Positions 38,750 to 46,109 are shown, counted from the stretch's first letter. The stretch is 64,000 nucleotides of DNA from Candidatus Bathyarchaeota archaeon (GCA_963815095.1 CAWFFH010000006.1:1-64000), one strand, 5' to 3'. The notes: generated by a model from the sequence alone, not told the origin. Made by a program: numbers and translations.

Positions 38750-38862
38750 GGTCTTGGGCTATAAAAAACCACTGTCGCAAGTTAGATTTGAGTATCATTC
38801 TGAAATTGAGGGGAATAAATTGTTTAGGAAAAGAAATCGATATAATGGATAATTTCCAAAAG

Positions 38863-39993
38863 CTAAGGTATAATTTCGCAGCCGTTGTACTTGAGGTAAT
38901 CGAAATCTTCAAGCCTAATTTTTTGGTTTTCTATTAGTTGCTGGATTCTTGGAACCTCACTTTTCACAGACTCGACTAGTTGCTCAACGGTGTAGCAAAC
39001 CTTGCTGTATGCTTCATCCGTCCATCTTTTTGTTATGTTTGTGTATAAGCATCTGCCGCCACAAATGTTGAGGATAGTGCATTGGCTACAGGGTTTTTCG
39101 TTAACAAACAGCTTCTTTAACTTAAGTGGATCAGAATCTTTAATGTGCCCCAAATAGTATTTTTTCATGCCCCACATCGTTGGACAAGGCATAATATAAC
39201 CATCCGTTTGGATGGCGTAATTTATCCAGCCACCTCCACAACGCATGAGACAGTTCTTCTCTTCATGCAAAAGCGACCCTGCAATACCCAGTAACGGATA
39301 AAGCTTCAGCGCCACGCCCTTTTCCTGCATTTGATCCACCCAGAACCGCGCGAGTTCTCGAACGCCTGGGATATAGTTAGTTTTTGTCCATTCTTCAAAG
39401 TTCCGTCTTTGATAATCGTTTCCCCAAAAACCGGCGTTAAGCTGCCAATGTATTGACGAAAACGAAAATTCTTCGTTATCCAGTAGCCATCGGACTTGTT
39501 TGTTGATGTCGGTTTGCTCCATTATTGTCATGCGAGCGATTAATTCGCCTGCGAAACCGTTTTTCTTTATTAGTTTTAGGTTATCGATGACTTTGCGGAA
39601 AGTGCCCACTCCACGGTAATAGTCTGTTAAGGCTTCTTCTCCATCTATGGAAACGAGGATTGTGTGGAAGCGATTAACGTACTTGGGCTCCAACTTGTCA
39701 AGAAGCAAGCCGTTGGTTTGAATCATAAAATGTTTTGGTTCAACTTTATCCATGATTTGCCGGAGTTTATCTATGCCCAGTAAGGGTTCGCCGCCGTAGA
39801 AAGTTAAAACGCATTCGGGGTCTTTACTGCAAAATTCTTTGAGTAATTCCAAATCATAGTTTAGTTTTCGAGGTAAATCGTAATCTACTTCGATGTCGTC
39901 GCCGAATTCTTCGTCGAAATCGTCTAGGCTCTCGCCAAAGCAGTATTTGCATTGCAGGTTACAATCACTTGTGAGTAGGACATGAAAGAACAT
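38863..39993 (-). CDS. Radical SAM/SPASM protein (AF0577/TIGR04084-like)
   Basis: CNLQCKYC; YGGEPLL; SPASM cysteines CGGG..CP..CSQC..CGGRC; C-terminal CEIIP. Confidence 0.85.
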   Translation of the reverse strand: MFFHVLLTSDCNLQCKYCFGESLDDFDEEFGDDIEVDYDLPRKLNYDLELLKEFCSKDPECVLTFYGGEPLLGIDKLRQIMDKVEPKHFMIQTNGLLLDKLEPKYVNRFHTILVSIDGEEALTDYYRGVGTFRKVIDNLKLIKKNGFAGELIARMTIMEQTDINKQVRWLLDNEEFSFSSIHWQLNAGFWGNDYQRRNFEEWTKTNYIPGVRELARFWVDQMQEKGVALKLYPLLGIAGSLLHEEKNCLMRCGGGWINYAIQTDGYIMPCPTMWGMKKYYLGHIKDSDPLKLKKLFVNEKPCSQCTILNICGGRCLYTNITKRWTDEAYSKVCYTVEQLVESVKSEVPRIQQLIENQKIRLEDFDYLKYNGCEIIP

Positions 39994-40185
39994 GGTTAAT
40001 AGTGGATAAGTCGGGTTTAATAGGATTTTTCCTCTACCATAAGGCTCCTCATATCAAAAACTTTCAAAATGCACTTGGTCAGAAGTGTAAATTTAAGAAG
40101 TTTATGCTTCGATATATTCTTTTTTTCAGAATTTTGTTTATAAGAGTAATCATAAATCACTTTTTAACAAATACATCTTAATTAT

Positions 40186-40413
40186 TTGGTGCGGGCTTTG
40201 GTAGGTCTTTCTAAAAATCAAAAACGACTTGTGGAAATGCTAAAGATAAAGCCTGACATGACAACCAAGGAACTTGCCGAAATGATTTTTGGGAAAATTA
40301 TAGATTACAAATCAAAAGAATACGCTTCTGTCTATCGAAGCTTAATTTCCTTGGAAAAACAGGGTTGCATTAAAAGAGTACAGGTTCAACTTCGCTGGCA
40401 AACGACTAACTAA
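40186..40413 (+). CDS. Small winged-HTH regulator
   Basis: LSKNQKRLVEML..MTTKELAEMI..SVYRSLISLEKQGCIKR. Confidence 0.75.
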   Translation: MVRALVGLSKNQKRLVEMLKIKPDMTTKELAEMIFGKIIDYKSKEYASVYRSLISLEKQGCIKRVQVQLRWQTTN

Positions 40414-40492
40414 AAAGGTATTTGCACTGTAAATTGCAGTTAGACACCGTTAATACACTGAAGAAAATATTTAGCTAAAGAATGAGTGTTGC

Positions 40493-41848
40493 TTAATAGT
40501 ATTTTTCAGCGAGTTTTCTTGCTTCAACTTCTTCAGGAGTTTCTTCCGCTTCATTTTCTTCTTGATCTTTTTCTTCCTTTTCGTGCTGGTCTGTTTCCTT
40601 TTCTTTTTGAACTTTCTTAAGCGCCTTGTTTACATAATTAAAAAGGTCTCTACTCTTCATTAATTTATCCGAAAGAGATTCGGGAGCATAAAGCAAAGGT
40701 ATAGTAGCTATAAACAGCAAGAAGCTTGCTAAGGAAAAAGCGGATCCAACCGGTTGGTCAGGTGGAGTAAGAAATTGAGCCATCACTTGAACAAATCCTG
40801 ATAGTAAAAATGGTAATCCTCCTAAGAAATAGTACTTCTCACGGTTGCTTGTTTCTGAAAGATCACCCCAGACAACAAAAACAAAATTAACATACAGGAA
40901 ACCCCAAGCAAGTCCATCGAAAACTGTAAAAAGAATTATGGCAACCAGACCTGTTGGAATTAAGCTTAGAAAGGCATAACCTATTCCTAACAGAACAAAT
41001 CCCACGATTCCAGTAACTTTTCTTCCTTTCAAATCACAAAGAAAACCTGCCGCGAGTGCTGTTAAGCTCGTTATTACAAGCGTTGCCAACTCATAATTTG
41101 AATAATAATTATTTGAATCAATACCGTCCATGTATCCTTTAACTAAGGGAGTTAACATAAAATTAACAAGTGTGAACATGAACCAAGGTAAGAAGTAAAG
41201 AATAAAAGTTCTGTCTCTCAAAATTTTTAATAGAGTTAATTTTCGTTCTTTGTCATTATTCTTTATTTCAATGAGAAAGAATATTCCTAATAAACCCATA
41301 ATTCGCCATATTGAAAAGATTAAAAATTTGTAATCTATAGTTGATTCACCTAAAATAAAAATAATTATCGCTGTCATTATTTGAATTATGAAGAACAAAG
41401 CTGCTCCAATTCTACCTAATTGTTCATTTTTGGTTTGGTTTGCGAACATTGAAAGGCATGTTGGAATTCCTAAACCGACCGATCCACCTAGTATAAACGA
41501 AATTACTCCCAAAATAACCCAATTTGTCTGAGGCACTAAGAAGAAATAGGTTAATAGTGACGACAAGACTCCCCAAAGTATCCATAACTTTAGAAATGAT
41601 TTCTCTTTCAGTTTTTGGGCTAAAAGAGTAGCTCCAATTAATGCAGAGAACAATAATGCCGCGAAATATGGAATAGAAACCACATAAAAAGTGTTGGCAC
41701 CACTAAATTGGATGTTATTTGGCAAATCCAATATTGTAACCATGGTTAATAAGAACCACGATATACTGTTTGCAACCACGAATAGCGGCAGTAAGGTCTT
41801 TAGTTTTGCTCCGAGCATCTTGTTTCTGAATATACTGCTTGTCACCAA
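40493..41848 (-). CDS. Divergent MFS-like ~12-TM membrane protein with acidic C-terminal tail
   Basis: Hydrophobic helices; AGFLCDLKGRK motif-A-like loop; YAPESL then Glu-rich tail. Confidence 0.75.
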   Translation of the reverse strand: MVTSSIFRNKMLGAKLKTLLPLFVVANSISWFLLTMVTILDLPNNIQFSGANTFYVVSIPYFAALLFSALIGATLLAQKLKEKSFLKLWILWGVLSSLLTYFFLVPQTNWVILGVISFILGGSVGLGIPTCLSMFANQTKNEQLGRIGAALFFIIQIMTAIIIFILGESTIDYKFLIFSIWRIMGLLGIFFLIEIKNNDKERKLTLLKILRDRTFILYFLPWFMFTLVNFMLTPLVKGYMDGIDSNNYYSNYELATLVITSLTALAAGFLCDLKGRKVTGIVGFVLLGIGYAFLSLIPTGLVAIILFTVFDGLAWGFLYVNFVFVVWGDLSETSNREKYYFLGGLPFLLSGFVQVMAQFLTPPDQPVGSAFSLASFLLFIATIPLLYAPESLSDKLMKSRDLFNYVNKALKKVQKEKETDQHEKEEKDQEENEAEETPEEVEARKLAEKYY

Positions 41849-41934
41849 TATATACTAACTTTATGAATTTACGATGCATTTTTTTGATTCATATTGGCTA
41901 ATTTTTTGTTTGTATTGTGTATAACTGTTTAACA

Positions 41935-41980
41935 CAAAGCTTAAATTGAGTTGTTCTACACATATACAATTAAGGTGAGG
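41935..41980 (+). promoter_or_regulatory. Putative BRE/TATA (CAAAGCTTAAAT) and Shine-Dalgarno (GGTGAGG) of the 17-aa peptide gene
   Basis: TATA-like box ~40 bp and strong SD 3 bp upstream of ATG 41984. Confidence 0.6.
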
Positions 41981-41983
41981 AGA

Positions 41984-42037
41984 ATGAAGAAGGCAACGAA
42001 AAAAGAAATGAGGAAACCAGTAGTATTCGCTTGGTAA
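41984..42037 (+). CDS. 17-aa peptide MKKATKKEMRKPVVFAW; candidate prenylated-peptide precursor, not in the ORF track
   Basis: Strong SD, TATA, stop 7 bp from the prenyltransferase stop; C-terminal Trp. Confidence 0.7.
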   Translation: MKKATKKEMRKPVVFAW

Positions 42038-42044
42038 ATTATCC

Positions 42045-43037
42045 TCAAAGATCCTCCAACATTGAAGCGATAACAAGCTCTAAAGAGCCTCTTTCTCTCT
42101 TGCTCTTTAATTTAGAGAGAGCTTGTATCGCTTCATTTTCTAACCTTTTTAAGTATTTCATCAATAAGGGAAGAGTATTCGTTTCTTGAATAATTTTCAA
42201 AAGCTCACGAGAATCATTTGAACTAATTTTATCTTTTGATAATAGTTCCCGAATTTTTGACGAATAAGCCTTGTTCTGAAGAGCATATAACAATTGAAGG
42301 GGAAGGCACCCATTTTTTATCCTATCAAATAACTCGTCTGGTTCAAAAAGATCAGCAAACTCTGCCCTAACAGCCAACAGCGTACCTAAATTTCTCCCAT
42401 AGACGCCCATTGCCTCGATTTCCTCTTCAGATCCGCCGCTAAAGATTGCACCTATTTTCATTCGACCTTCAATTTCTGCAGCTTTCTTAGTCAAAACCTG
42501 TAAATATGTTTCCGGCTTCACACTCCGACGTATTTTTTTCAATTCTATTTCAGAGATATGAGCGTTTACAACTTCAGCCAAGAAACTATTCATAATCTTC
42601 ATTATTAGATCCTGACGATCATTCGGTAATTTTGAAATACATTGATGAAGATAGTAGAAACTTCTTGTCATATACTCATCACCGATGAGCAAAGTGGTTT
42701 CTAGACCAAGTTTACCATAGGGAGTCTTTATTTTCTTTTTAGACAATGATCCATCAATTAAATCATCATGAATATCCATAGTAACATCAATGAATGATAA
42801 TGCAACTTGCAAAGGCACTATGTCTTCCAACTTGCCACCAACTGCTTCACTGGCAATTGCAAGAACGCCCGGTCTGGTCGTATCCTTCCATCTAGAAATA
42901 TATTGTTCAATTGCTCTATCGATTTTGCCATAACCGAAATTATTTTCATTAACAAGTTGCTGAAAAATAGCAAGAGCCTTTTCGCTTTTTTGATTAAGAA
43001 GCAATAAAGCTTTTTCAGCTTTGTTTTCTTGAGTCAT
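42045..43037 (-). CDS. Trans-isoprenyl diphosphate synthase-fold protein with degenerate SARM (ComQ-like prenyltransferase candidate)
   Basis: FARM DIHDDLID intact; RRG replaced by KKK; SARM region reads AVRAEFAD. Confidence 0.8.
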   Translation of the reverse strand: MTQENKAEKALLLLNQKSEKALAIFQQLVNENNFGYGKIDRAIEQYISRWKDTTRPGVLAIASEAVGGKLEDIVPLQVALSFIDVTMDIHDDLIDGSLSKKKIKTPYGKLGLETTLLIGDEYMTRSFYYLHQCISKLPNDRQDLIMKIMNSFLAEVVNAHISEIELKKIRRSVKPETYLQVLTKKAAEIEGRMKIGAIFSGGSEEEIEAMGVYGRNLGTLLAVRAEFADLFEPDELFDRIKNGCLPLQLLYALQNKAYSSKIRELLSKDKISSNDSRELLKIIQETNTLPLLMKYLKRLENEAIQALSKLKSKRERGSLELVIASMLEDL

Positions 43038-43226
43038 ATGGCTCTTATTGTGGGTAAATTGATATAATATTTTCGTAGCAAGAATTTTTGTAGAATTTAG
43101 AATTATTTTTTGACTGAGGTATGGTTGAATTCTTTTACAATCTGATATTATTCAAAATCATTATTTATGGGAATTATTTGTCGAATACAAAACTCTTAAT
43201 AGCTTTATTAATAATTCAACAGTTTC

Positions 43227-46109
43227 ATGAGCTCCAGCAAAGAAATTGAGGCTAAATGGCGTGGAAGTTGGGAATCAGCAGGGATTTTCGAATCAGATCC
43301 TGACCCAAAAAGACAGAAAATAATGGTTACTTTTCCCTTTCCATATATGAATGGTCCATTGCATGTAGGTCACACGTTCACAGCTTCCCGCGTGGATGCT
43401 TTCGCTCGATTCAAACGTATGCAGGGTTTTAATGTTCTTTGGCCTTGGGCTTGGCATTGGACCGGCCAACCGTTACTTGGAGCAAGTCAGCGTGTAGCTC
43501 GAGGTGACCAAGAATTCATCCGCGTCTTACGCGAAGTCGACGGTGTGCCAGAAGAGACAATTAAGAAATTCGTTGATCCCCTCTACATGGCTCAATATTA
43601 CACTGATGAAGGACGCTTAGCCGTCAAAGGCATAGGCTTCTCGGTGGATTGGCGACGAGAATTTACAACCGTTATGCCTACTTTCCAAAAATTTGTTGAG
43701 TGGCAGTATAAGAACCTTAAAGAAAAAGGATACGTCACACGAGGTACTCACCCAGTCGTTTGGTGCCCCAAAGACAAAAGCCCTACAGGCGACCATGACC
43801 GCCAAAGCGGCGAAGGCGTCACCCCCGAAGAATACACACTAATCAAATACAAACTCGAAAATGGCATCATTTTGCCAGCTGCCACTTTCCGACCAGAAAC
43901 CATCTACGCCATAACAAACATATGGATAAACCCGGAAGCCAAATACGTGGAAGCCACTGTAAATGGCGAATGCTGGATAATTAGCCAAGAAGCGGCAGAA
44001 AAACTAAAAGAACAGGAAAGAAAAATTGAAGTTAATCGGAGCTTCCAAGGCAAAGAACTCATCGGCAAAACCTTTGAGAACCCTGTCACAAAACTCAAGT
44101 TCCCAATTTTGCCTGGATGGTTTGTTGATCCCAAGACTGCCACGGGTGTAGTTTACAGCGTTCCCGCACATGCACCATATGATTGGCTTGCACTCAGAGA
44201 TCTTCAACAAAAACCCGAGGTTCTTACCCAGTTTGGAATAGACCCAGCAGTGGTTTGTCAGATTAAACCAATCTCAATTATCAAAGTTGAAGGCTTCGGC
44301 GATTTTCCTGCGATAGAAATAGTCGATAAAATGGGCATAAAAGATCAAAACGACCCAAAAGCTGACCAAGCTACAAAAGAACTCTACAAAAAAGAATTCC
44401 ACGGAGGAATCCTCAAGGAGAGTTGCGGTCCTTACGCTGGCAAGAGTGTGCGTGGAGTTAAGGATCTTCTTATCGAGGATTTTAAGAAGATGGGGGTGGC
44501 CGAAAGCATGTATGATTTGTCGGAACCCGTAGTTTGCCGCTGCATGACCCAATGCTTCGTAAAAATTCTCTCAGATCAATGGTTCCTAAACTATTCAGAT
44601 CCACAATGGAAGGAACAAGCCCACGCTGCCATCGCTCAAATGACAATTTACCCTGACTCCGCTAAGTCATCGTTCAACACAGTCATCGACTGGCTCCGCG
44701 AATGGGCGTGTGCAAGAACCACCGGTTTTGGAACGCCACTGCCATGGGGTAAAGGGTGGATAATAGAAACCCTCAGCGACTCCACAGTCTACATGGCGTT
44801 CTACACCATAAACAAACACATAAAACAACACAACATCAACCCACCGTCACTCAAGCCTGAAGTTTTTGATTACATATTCTACGGCAAAGGCAATTTGTCT
44901 GAACTTTCGAAAGACGTAGGAATCAAAACTGAGTTGCTGGATTCAATGCGTTCTGAATTCCTATATTGGTACCCATTTGACCTGCGAAACTCAGCCAAAG
45001 AACTTGTACCCAACCATCTCTCATTCTGCATCTTTCACCACGCAGCATTGTTTCCACCTGAACATTGGCCAAGAGCCATCGGCGTAAACGGCATGCTTAT
45101 GGTTGAAGGTCAAGGCATGCACAAAAGCAAAGGCAACTTTATAACCATGAAAAGCGCCGTCGAAAAATACGGTGCAGATGCAACCCGTTGCGGTTTATTG
45201 TTAGGTGCTGAGGGCATGGATGACCCAGATTGGCGAGCGGAAAACATAAGCGACTTACAAAGCAAGTTTACTGGGTTAATGGGTTTTGCAAGCGGCATTA
45301 TTGCGTCTGCCAAAAAAGAAGAAGACACAATGCTTGAGCGGTGGCTTCAGAGTAAACTTCAAACTCGAATAAAAGTGGTCACGGCGAGCTTAGAGGAACT
45401 TAAAACCCGAACAGCTCTGCAAGTGGCTTTGTTTGAAACTTGGAACGATTTACGTTGGTACATTCAACGAAAAGGCAACTCTGAATCTAAGGCATTGTGC
45501 GAAGCGGTTAAAGTTTGGCTAAAGATGCTTGCGCCTTTTGCTCCTTTCCTTTGCGAAGAGCTCTGGAACCAGACTGGTGAGGAAGGTTTCATTAGCGTTG
45601 CTTCGTGGCCAACTTTTGCAGCTCACAAGATTGATGTACCCGCAGAAGAGCAGGAGACCGAAATAACCAACTTAATGACTGACACATCCAACATCCTAAA
45701 AGCAACGAAAATAACACCAAAACGCATATGCTACTACACTGCTGCGCCTTGGAAATGGCAGGTTTACCTCAAAATCTTAGAAAAAACCGTGACTGGCGAA
45801 GCAAAAATTGGCGAGTTGATGAAGGAATTCGTCGCTGACAAAGACCTGAAACCTCACATGAAAGATATTGCAGGTCTGGTTCCGCGGGTGATTAAAGCTT
45901 TGACAAAAGTTTCAGGCGAGCGAAAAGTGAACATGCAACAAATCAAAATGGTGGACGAGAACGCCTTATTGATGGGTGCAGCCACTTTTTTGGGGGAACG
46001 CTTCAACGCAGAAGTATCAGTTTACAGCGAAACCAACCAAGAACGATTTGACCCCAAACAACGAGCAGCAATGGCAATGCCCTACCAACCAGCCATCTAC
46101 ATTGAATAA
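43227..46109 (+). CDS. leuS: Leucyl-tRNA synthetase, archaeal type
   Basis: PYMNGPLHVGH (HIGH), ATFRPET editing domain, GMHKSKGN (KMSKS). Confidence 0.96.
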   Translation: MSSSKEIEAKWRGSWESAGIFESDPDPKRQKIMVTFPFPYMNGPLHVGHTFTASRVDAFARFKRMQGFNVLWPWAWHWTGQPLLGASQRVARGDQEFIRVLREVDGVPEETIKKFVDPLYMAQYYTDEGRLAVKGIGFSVDWRREFTTVMPTFQKFVEWQYKNLKEKGYVTRGTHPVVWCPKDKSPTGDHDRQSGEGVTPEEYTLIKYKLENGIILPAATFRPETIYAITNIWINPEAKYVEATVNGECWIISQEAAEKLKEQERKIEVNRSFQGKELIGKTFENPVTKLKFPILPGWFVDPKTATGVVYSVPAHAPYDWLALRDLQQKPEVLTQFGIDPAVVCQIKPISIIKVEGFGDFPAIEIVDKMGIKDQNDPKADQATKELYKKEFHGGILKESCGPYAGKSVRGVKDLLIEDFKKMGVAESMYDLSEPVVCRCMTQCFVKILSDQWFLNYSDPQWKEQAHAAIAQMTIYPDSAKSSFNTVIDWLREWACARTTGFGTPLPWGKGWIIETLSDSTVYMAFYTINKHIKQHNINPPSLKPEVFDYIFYGKGNLSELSKDVGIKTELLDSMRSEFLYWYPFDLRNSAKELVPNHLSFCIFHHAALFPPEHWPRAIGVNGMLMVEGQGMHKSKGNFITMKSAVEKYGADATRCGLLLGAEGMDDPDWRAENISDLQSKFTGLMGFASGIIASAKKEEDTMLERWLQSKLQTRIKVVTASLEELKTRTALQVALFETWNDLRWYIQRKGNSESKALCEAVKVWLKMLAPFAPFLCEELWNQTGEEGFISVASWPTFAAHKIDVPAEEQETEITNLMTDTSNILKATKITPKRICYYTAAPWKWQVYLKILEKTVTGEAKIGELMKEFVADKDLKPHMKDIAGLVPRVIKALTKVSGERKVNMQQIKMVDENALLMGAATFLGERFNAEVSVYSETNQERFDPKQRAAMAMPYQPAIYIE

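Follow-up and report, generated by a model that had tools for sequence, protein, structure and literature searches.

A conserved micropeptide gene tied to a remodelled isoprenyl-synthase-fold enzyme and an MFS transporter in a hypervariable cassette of Bathyarchaeia

We describe a micropeptide gene found in a 64,000-nucleotide (nt) stretch of DNA from a Candidatus Bathyarchaeota archaeon (CAWFFH010000006.1:1-64000), which is referred to below as the window. This micro-open reading frame (micro-ORF) of 17 codons lies between the gene of an enzyme with the trans-isoprenyl diphosphate synthase (trans-IDS) fold and that of a major facilitator superfamily (MFS) transporter. The micro-ORF is a real, conserved gene, and it is tied to the remodelled IDS-fold enzyme and to the MFS transporter in a fast-evolving cassette. 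On the strength of sequence comparisons and of analogy with bacterial systems, the three genes may encode an independently evolved peptide prenyltransferase together with its own substrate and exporter. We hold this reading tentatively and give it slightly less than even credence. The features that carry the argument are listed here by their positions in the window.

41984-42037, plus strand: micro-ORF, proposed prenyl acceptor (ATG at 41984, TAA at 42035-42037; 17 codons and a stop)
41974-41980, plus strand: Shine-Dalgarno-like GGTGAGG, 3 nt 5′ of the micro-ORF ATG
41935-41946, plus strand: caaag-cttaaat, resembling a B recognition element and TATA box (BRE/TATA), a putative promoter element about 40 nt 5′ of the ATG, read by eye
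42045-43037, minus strand: enzyme of the trans-IDS fold, 330 amino acids, putative peptide prenyltransferase (PF00348; convergent with the micro-ORF)
40493-41848, minus strand: MFS-type transporter, 451 amino acids, putative exporter or flippase (MFS_1, 42.7 bits; divergent from the micro-ORF)
40033-43187, no strand: hypervariable, AT-richer cassette with a winged helix-turn-helix (wHTH) gene, the MFS gene, the micro-ORF and the enzyme gene (from blastn against L121, a locus of the same genus, and from the GC profile)

The micro-ORF and its signals

The product of the micro-ORF, MKKATKKEMRKPVVFAW, is a polybasic peptide that closes with a hydrophobic tail and has Trp as its last residue. Its stop is separated by 7 nt from the stop of the convergent enzyme gene (42045-42047), and everything that the first-pass annotation of this DNA had pointed out here is present, i.e. 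the 54-bp ORF, the Shine-Dalgarno (SD) word, the TATA-like box and the two neighbouring stops. Across homologous loci, SD-like words recur 5-16 nt 5′ of the micro-ORF ATG. A YTTAWAW word precedes the micro-ORF in 29 of 71 loci and is found at -42 to -45 in 24 of those, while the clade to which the window belongs carries a near-identical aaagcttata element at this place. We infer from the sequence that caaag-cttaaat is the BRE/TATA promoter of the micro-ORF.

A structured-RNA reading of the region was tried and dropped. The Rfam scan of the region gave no family at threshold, with the best match scoring 22.4 bits against a gathering score of 55.8, and the RNA fold of the region is not unusual (z = +0.79). 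A scan for promoters and terminators returned 0 sites, but its models are bacterial-type and the host is archaeal, which makes the result uninformative here. Nine sequencing runs were listed for the interval 38863-43226, all of DNA type with small shares and none of RNA, a result that carries no information on expression.

Recurrence of the micro-ORF beyond chance

How often would an ORF of this kind be met in the genome at large? In the window's own assembly, a genome-wide scan found 20,777 micro-ORFs of 12-25 amino acids with an ATG start. A strong SD reduces these to 332, the further demand of a net charge of at least +4 leaves 40, and a terminal Trp leaves only 3. One of the three is the window ORF, another lies directly 5′ of a paralogous enzyme-MFS pair on contig C4, and the third is at C3:660093.

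We surveyed homologous loci in two sets. The first consisted of 30 loci from 61 related genomes, the flanks of which were scanned with an SD filter. A family-like convergent micro-ORF was found in 21 of the 30, and about six more are visible in raw translations. The second set consisted of 80 loci from public genomes and the window, 81 in all. In this set the micro-ORF was picked without regard to motifs, by a score on SD, ATG and net charge, in the interval from -60 to +130 nt of the enzyme stop. A convergent micro-ORF was picked at 76 of the 81 enzyme 3′ ends. A score of at least 7 was reached at 63 of the 81, in contrast to 12 of 298 3′ ends of other genes in the same loci (Fisher p ~1e-42, which overstates the significance because the loci are related). 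The stop-to-stop gaps range from -27 to +52, and in most loci the two stops are 0-50 nt apart or the genes overlap. The check that the first-pass annotation had proposed, namely to collect homologues of the enzyme and scan their flanks for short SD-led ORFs, has therefore come out positive.

A few of the 76 picks are doubtful, namely those in L079, L087 and L109 and the long form in L093. Five loci gave no pick. In two of these, L032 and L100, a family-like micro-ORF can be read in raw translation, L098 holds one without a canonical start, and the remaining two, L068 and L073, are ambiguous. Family-like micro-ORFs that have a good SD and lack an ATG, GTG or TTG start are also seen in L011 and L021, which are of the same type as L098, and in L013/L093. 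Judging from the translations, ATT (in the L098 type) or ACG (in the L093 type) may act as the start codon.

Two further observations concern the range and the annotation of the family. Modules with a micro-ORF occur in L053, L076, L084 and L101, on contigs labelled Caldiserica, Hadarchaeota, Baldrarchaeota and Nanoarchaeia, for which either a wider range or mis-binning may be the explanation. Furthermore, conserved genes of about 50 bp are overlooked by gene callers, and this family is a concrete case.

Composition and selection of the peptide family

The family comprises 74 unique peptide sequences with a median length of 16 amino acids and a range of 10-25. They share a simple layout, a Lys/Arg-rich start followed by a final 3-7 mostly hydrophobic residues. 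The motif P-[VIMT]-R is present in 57 of the 76 picked peptides and in just 1 of 87 control picks. A Trp is found within the last four residues of 48 of the 76, compared with 5 of the 87 controls, and it is the terminal residue in 21 of the 76. The Trp-terminal end named in the first-pass annotation is seen in the window peptide and in 12 of the 16 rows of its clade, but it is not a rule of the family.

The Trp status of the peptides is clade-structured on the enzyme tree, where it changes 6 times. For example, one enzyme clade of 28 rows has Trp in every peptide, and in the window's 16-row clade the rows that depart from the terminal Trp are a 4-row subclade whose peptides end in Ile.

Codon differences point to selection on the peptide itself. 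We counted single-nucleotide codon differences between pairs that were chosen by enzyme clade only and that are not independent of one another. Within the window's clade 177 of the differences are synonymous and 130 non-synonymous (177/307, 58%), whereas 23% synonymous would be expected at random. Outside this clade 295 of 589 are synonymous (50%), again against 23% at random. On this codon evidence, the micropeptide's amino-acid sequence is under purifying selection. A count on pairs chosen by peptide identity (184 synonymous and 72 non-synonymous) was discarded because choosing pairs in that way favours synonymous changes.

A remodelled enzyme of the isoprenyl-synthase fold

The enzyme has the isoprenyl-synthase fold that had been attributed to it. 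It matches PF00348 (polyprenyl_synt) with 64.5 bits, against a cutoff of 27, and an AlphaFold2 model of it (predicted local distance difference test score 93.4, 16 helices) gave 457 PDB matches at E <=0.001, the top ones of which are all IDS. The closest solved fold is 1wy0, the geranylgeranyl diphosphate (GGPP) synthase of P. horikoshii, with a template modelling (TM) score of 0.81. A search of the Atlas returned only Bathyarchaeota polyprenyl-synthetase clusters, and homologues of the enzyme are annotated in public as GGPP, heptaprenyl or octaprenyl synthase. When compared with 13 NCBIfam IDS families the enzyme scores 31-73 bits, all far under the cutoffs of 275-600.

Which parts of an IDS are kept? 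Twelve positions are invariant among 32 diverse homologues (D91, D92, D95, S97, K100, T105, G111, E163, G214, G218, D229 and L245). These include the first Asp-rich motif, DDxxD, formed by D91, D92 and D95, which is intact in 32 of 32 sequences and in every row of a motif table of 73 enzymes. In an IDS, the GKxxR, RRG, GQ, FQ and GK-loop motifs serve in the binding of isopentenyl diphosphate (IPP) and in condensation, and relative to canonical IDS all of these are changed or deleted family-wide. The same genome has a canonical IDS on contig C5, with GKxxR, DDxxD-x4-RRG, GQ, KT, FQ-DDxxN and the GK loop. Aligned to it, the window's enzyme family shows W-x-D at the Lys site, K-x-x for RRG, H or E for Q and a 5-residue deletion that removes the GK loop.

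The second acidic motif has been altered in part. It reads AEFAD in the window and x-[ED]-x-x-D across the 73 tabulated enzymes. Of the 73, 23 have A, S, N or K at the first position, which in the window's clade is A or S. Other clades have EExxD, DExxD or DDxxD. The description 'second motif lost', which comes from the window alone, is wrong for the family, where the motif remains acidic.

By its sequence the enzyme probably has its evolutionary source in the archaeal short-chain IDS. It does not appear to belong to the ComQ family, and Ord1, the only solved indole prenyltransferase compared, ranks 21st in the fold search, under many IDS. The kinship with ComQ that was suggested in the first-pass annotation is therefore not borne out, as both the sequence profile and the fold are closest to chain-elongating archaeal and bacterial IDS. 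No ComQ-named family is among the NCBIfam matches at E <=0.1, where the presence of such a model in NCBIfam is itself unverified. The fold search and the PDB profile search separate IDS from indole prenyltransferases too poorly to decide function.

Linkage to the MFS gene and paralogous modules

For neighbourhood counts, all ORFs of the 81 loci were clustered. The MFS gene is 3′ of the enzyme gene on the same strand in 79 of the 81 loci, with the micro-ORF between them on the opposite strand, so the view of the MFS-like protein as a partner stands. The match of the MFS protein to MFS_1 compares with a cutoff of 33.4 bits, and its profile matches to solved MFS transporters are weak. D272, G275, R276 and K277 are invariant in the alignment and a YAPETLP stretch is conserved, all of which we take to be MFS signature motifs. 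The true start of the MFS protein is probably Met11, at about 41818 and 10 codons inside the listed TTG start at 41848, because Met11 is nearly invariant in the alignment. The divergent region that the micro-ORF and the MFS gene were said to share accordingly measures 135 bp to the listed TTG start, as reported, but about 165 bp if Met11 is the true start.

The window's own genome has a second module on contig C4 (C4:139003-141494; L116:2004-4486). Here a basic micro-ORF of 18 amino acids, with Trp-Gly-Gly-Trp at its end, is found about 100 nt 5′ of, and on the same strand as, a paralogous IDS-like gene (34% identity over residues 56-262) and an MFS paralogue (34%). Two more loci, L123 and L134, have a near-identical arrangement, with a Trp-tailed basic micro-ORF upstream on the same strand. 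In L124 and L135 a Trp-tailed basic micro-ORF is convergent with the paralogous enzyme gene. Both arrangements occur in L133 (G014:C18:48800-53600), where a single enzyme gene has a micro-ORF on either side. The upstream one is on the strand of the enzyme gene, the downstream one is convergent with it, and both end in Phe-Gly-Gly-Trp. That the linkage holds in either orientation speaks for a gene product acting together with the enzyme and against a mere antisense arrangement.

Loci that lack part of the module were also inspected. In L112 and L113, where the enzyme gene is missing and leuS abuts the MFS gene, no micro-ORF was seen. The four canonical-IDS loci, L137-L140, have no MFS match and no family-like micro-ORF. 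In L138 a 14-amino-acid, Trp-terminal basic ORF is found about 390 nt downstream of the canonical IDS gene, which we took to be due to chance. Locus L111 (3000-3500; G004:C28) has a family-like micro-ORF divergent from the MFS gene and then a run of N at the place of the enzyme gene, for which reason the apparent absence of the enzyme from this genome cannot be judged.

A hypervariable cassette

The GC content is about 0.32-0.37 over positions 40000-43400, compared with 0.42-0.47 in leuS and 0.41-0.45 in the radical S-adenosylmethionine (SAM) gene on the other side, so that the block is AT-richer than leuS, as had been noted. When the window is compared by blastn with L121 (from genome G011, of the same genus), the stretches 38771-40032 and 43188-44629 each align at 81%, while between them only 84 nt align. 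Because DNA similarity to L121 vanishes across the block, we regard 40033-43187 as a variable, AT-richer island, and it matches the coordinates flagged in the first-pass annotation.

The proteins tell the same story within the genus. Identity to the window is 73-87% for leuS and 69-91% for the radical-SAM protein, but 28-56% for the best enzyme match and 28-49% for the MFS protein. Across the genus, the identity rankings of the cassette genes are decoupled from those of the flanks. For example, the genome that contains L121 has identities of 86% for leuS and 91% for the radical-SAM protein with 32% for the enzyme and 38% for the MFS protein, and the corresponding values for G015 are 81%, 80%, 56% and 46%. 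Such rapid diversification is more in keeping with a strain-specific signal, or with an antagonistic lipopeptide that is active on membranes, than with a housekeeping product.

Gene numbers in the cassette also vary. In L121 (G011:C10:230500-239500) the interval from leuS to the radical-SAM gene contains two enzyme-MFS pairs, a tandem duplication, and in L122 (G016:C102) the cassette holds one enzyme gene and two MFS genes.

Neighbouring genes

Two further genes of the window bear on the extent of the system.

40186-40413, plus strand: small wHTH-like gene, 75 amino acids (sub-threshold HTH matches; cluster c9)
38863-39993, minus strand: radical SAM/SPASM gene, TIGR04084 (305 bits against a cutoff of 225), conserved flank

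The wHTH-like protein has no HTH match above threshold (TrmB, 17.6 bits against a cutoff of 25.6). It had been put forward as a component of the system, a suggestion that loses ground here as its cluster occurs in 9 of the 81 loci only. It may be an optional passenger or a local regulator.

The radical-SAM gene is a more serious candidate. It is 3′ of the MFS gene and on the same strand in 54 of the 81 loci, often within 2-30 nt. The nearest solved relatives of its product are 5wgg, a radical SAM domain protein which we take to be CteB, and 4k36, an anaerobic sulfatase-maturating enzyme, and its second NCBIfam match is the PapB ranthipeptide maturase. A full-text literature search found no paper mentioning TIGR04084. 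Among 61 relatives the radical-SAM gene is present in 50, including genomes without an enzyme or MFS match, compared with 39 for the MFS gene and about 34 for the enzyme gene (E <=1e-25; the enzyme tally is taken from a table). Its identity to the window protein is 51-91% in nearly all relatives, the exceptions being four distant genomes with 35-40%. The enzyme and the MFS protein have mean column identities of 48% and 40%, the radical-SAM protein one of 75%. Separately, 19 homologues that are 60-80% identical to the window's radical-SAM protein mark it as unusually conserved. The gene is kept in G024, where leuS directly adjoins it, and in G031, both of which lack the enzyme gene, the micro-ORF and the MFS gene. 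Where a ParA-like gene takes its place 3′ of the MFS gene, the micro-ORF is still there.

We had considered the order of enzyme, MFS and radical-SAM genes as a cluster for a peptide that is ribosomally synthesised and then modified after translation (RiPP), and this has been downgraded, the radical-SAM gene being more widespread, much more conserved and outside the variable cassette. We treat it as a conserved flank because of this wider spread and higher conservation and of the leuS adjacency in G024. It is probably not part of the system.

The other side of the locus is less constant. leuS is 5′ of the enzyme gene in 28 of the 81 loci. A divergent PadR-family pair (63 bits) stands in the upstream place of leuS in 36 of the 81, in one large clade (e.g. 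L055:3592-3984), and in 7 of the 81 a weakly GGR-like flavoprotein gene is directly 5′ of the enzyme gene. Other conserved neighbours encode a ParA-like protein, an amidohydrolase, an ABC ATPase and an NAPRTase. No histidine kinase or response regulator was found among the scanned representatives of conserved neighbours or the window ORFs, with no search dedicated to them.

Comparison with known systems

What is said here of the known systems follows excerpts of the cited papers. In ComQ the first Asp-rich motif is kept, while of the second motif the second Asp alone remains. An 11-mer is its minimal substrate, in which hydrophobic residues and a Trp come after a basic stretch and the Trp has to be 2-4 residues from the end (PMC5331326). 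The archaeal module is like ComQ/ComX in the trans-IDS fold, in a first Asp-rich motif that is intact and a second that in the window's clade has lost its first Asp, in a neighbouring gene for a small peptide that often has Trp near its C-terminus and in a locus that is polymorphic between close relatives. The window peptide resembles the minimal 11-mer in size and in character, with its basic stretch, hydrophobic residues and Trp. The comQXP genes are highly polymorphic and have pherotypes (PMC4008528, PMC4408185), a polymorphism that the hypervariability of the archaeal cassette appears to resemble.

There are also differences. ComX precursors are 53-58 amino acids or longer and have a leader that is cleaved off, whereas the archaeal ORFs encode 10-25 amino acids as a whole. 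A comQXPA locus has four co-directional genes that include the ComP kinase and the ComA regulator, but the archaeal module is mostly convergent and has an MFS transporter. Furthermore, about a third of the archaeal peptides lack Trp, unlike ComX. In the excerpted text of a 2014 census, comQXPA is confined to Firmicutes (PMC4008528). The quorum-sensing and regulator parts of the first-pass annotation found no specific support, as no kinase or receiver domain was met in the scanned neighbours or window ORFs, where no dedicated search was made. 'ComQX-like quorum sensing' is for this reason an analogy and not a membership, and the enzyme may be functionally ComQ-like while it stands outside the ComQ family.

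PalQ prenylates a strictly C-terminal Trp and favours a Gly before it (PMC10853753, PMC13290415). The core of PalX, from Paenibacillus alvei, ends in hydrophobic residues and Trp; similarly, the window peptide ends in Trp and the peptides of the paralogous modules end in GW/GGW. PalX differs in having a long nitrile-hydratase-like leader and a cluster with a histidine kinase, whereas the archaeal module has no long leader. StheQ extends the family to Chloroflexi and has one Mg2+ site, at the first motif (preprint). StheQ/StheX, from Sphaerobacter thermophilus, and Ord1, which prenylates free Trp and is a structural match to our enzyme at a TM score of 0.72, share with it the trans-IDS fold and the placing of the donor at the first Asp-rich motif. 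In StheQ, however, the metal site is single and the pseudo-second motif, in which an Asn is important, carries no metal, while the archaeal family is acidic there. The archaeal short-chain IDS, of which the P. horikoshii GGPP synthase is the best match by profile as well as by fold, differ as canonical IDS do in keeping the GKxxR, RRG, GQ, FQ-DDxxD and GK-loop residues that are replaced or deleted in this enzyme family.

Full-text literature searches turned up no account of this cluster or of a counterpart in archaea, in agreement with the remark in the first-pass annotation that none was known from archaea. In the excerpted text of a 2026 review, the word 'archaea' appears solely with regard to archaeal lipoproteins (PMC13290415).

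A proposed mechanism and its rivals

We propose that the module consists of a leaderless ribosomal micropeptide, an enzyme derived from an archaeal short-chain IDS and an MFS transporter. Transcription of the micro-ORF, divergent from that of the MFS gene, would be driven by its own BRE/TATA promoter and its translation led by the SD, both elements being visible at the locus. The enzyme is predicted, from the conservation of its invariant DDxxD, to bind an allylic prenyl diphosphate through this motif and Mg2+. The former IPP pocket has lost its basic residues and has an Asp aligned with the Lys of canonical IDS, and it could admit the tail of the peptide as a new acceptor. By analogy with ComQ, PalQ and StheQ, the prenyl cation would then pass to the indole of the C-terminal Trp (W17). 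Finally, the MFS protein, given its constant linkage, may export or flip the resulting cationic lipopeptide.

The ComQ analogy is best for the window, where the peptide ends in Trp and the enzyme has lost the first Asp of its second motif. It is incomplete for the family, given a clade without Trp, a P-[VI]-R that the analogy leaves unexplained and a second motif that has stayed acidic. Several observations weigh against prenylation of a Trp, or against the proposal as a whole. Of the 74 unique peptides 27 have no Trp, and nine lack an aromatic residue among their last five. One enzyme clade of 18 rows is Trp-less in 17 of them, where the tails follow the pattern PVR-x-[YFL]-P-[ILFV]. The most widespread motif of the peptides, P-[VI]-R, is missing from the window peptide and is not explained by the prenylation model. 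The second motif of the enzyme stays acidic family-wide and is a full DDxxD in 13 of the 73 tabulated enzymes, 11 of which have Trp peptides. The P. horikoshii GGPP synthase (128 bits, E 3.5e-36, TM 0.81) is nearer to the enzyme than Ord1 is (85 bits, TM 0.72). The more diverged enzyme-MFS pairs in L125-L129, as well as L130-L132, have no micro-ORF under the criteria used. In the excerpts concerned, DDxxD at the second motif of ComQ is reported to be unsuitable for Trp prenylation (PMC5331326), and all characterised trans-IDS-like peptide prenyltransferases are said to target Trp (review PMC13290415).

Could the micropeptide act without being modified? It might be a small protein that partners or regulates either the enzyme or the MFS protein. 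The enzyme would then make a non-peptide isoprenoid, e.g. by hydrolysis, by cyclisation or by prenylating a small molecule, and the MFS protein would export it. The basic stretch and P-[VI]-R (57/76) are more widespread in the peptides than Trp (48/76) and a whole clade is Trp-less, all of which favours such a role. The acidic second motif suits a class-I ionising enzyme that acts alone, and the linkage to the enzyme and MFS genes fits a binding partner equally well. We nevertheless think it unlikely. The C-terminal tail is variable while the N-terminal part is more uniform, which we take to be the leader-and-core pattern of RiPP precursors, Trp is about ten-fold enriched over control micro-ORFs, and the small partners of transporters that we know of are hydrophobic helices, unlike this peptide. 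The peptide might also be the substrate of the radical SAM/SPASM enzyme (TIGR04084), with the IDS-like enzyme adding an isoprenoid tail. Tiny precursors do serve the radical-SAM pathways of pyrroloquinoline quinone and mycofactocin, and both the position of the radical-SAM gene 3′ of the MFS gene (54/81, often at 2-30 nt) and the nearest solved relatives of its product, which act on peptides or proteins, with PapB as the second NCBIfam match, would agree with this. It becomes quite improbable in view of the wider spread of that gene (50/61, against 39/61 for MFS and about 34/61 for the enzyme) and its retention in G024 and G031 without the module, its far higher conservation (75% against 48% and 40%) outside the variable cassette and the loci with a ParA-like gene, which carry the micro-ORF with no radical-SAM gene 3′ of the MFS gene.

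The remaining alternatives do without a function for the peptide. In one of these the micro-ORF is a cis-acting unit, the transcription of which would run in antisense into the enzyme gene's 3′ end or the translation of which would sense a metabolite. The closeness or overlap of the stops in most loci and the promoter region in common with the MFS gene are compatible with such a unit, but the purifying selection on the amino-acid sequence, the lack of a conserved RNA structure and the same-strand upstream micro-ORFs of the paralogous modules make it very improbable. An ordinary isoprenyl diphosphate synthase for lipids with a short ORF beside it by chance would account for the public annotations as GGPP, heptaprenyl or octaprenyl synthase and for a fold and best profile matches that are those of IDS. 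We find this hardly credible, as a separate canonical IDS with all motifs is encoded on C5 of the same genome, the NCBIfam equivalog scores are 31-73 against cutoffs of 275-600, the IPP-site motifs are altered family-wide and the micro-ORF is present at 76 of 81 loci.

Implications for Bathyarchaeia

The proposal of a prenyltransferase with its own peptide and exporter can be carried one step further. Bathyarchaeia might possess an independently evolved, pherotype-like hypervariable cassette for a leaderless peptide lipidated at its tail and a dedicated MFS exporter, and the product, the first archaeal ribosomal prenyl-lipopeptide, would serve as a strain-specific signal or weapon. In this full form we regard the idea as possible but rather doubtful.

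Peptide prenylation by IDS-derived enzymes has so far been known from bacteria only, as in ComQ, PalQ, ChrPC and StheQ. If the proposal is true, one of the most abundant uncultured lineages of sediments and soils produces ribosomal lipopeptides, with precursors that are the smallest known in systems of this kind, and a housekeeping synthase has given rise to this type of enzyme for a second time. The Trp-less clade would then imply a prenyl acceptor chemistry that is new to this enzyme superfamily, and the family would offer new natural peptide-lipidating enzymes with varied tails. Furthermore, cell-cell signalling or antagonism in Bathyarchaeia would become directly testable.

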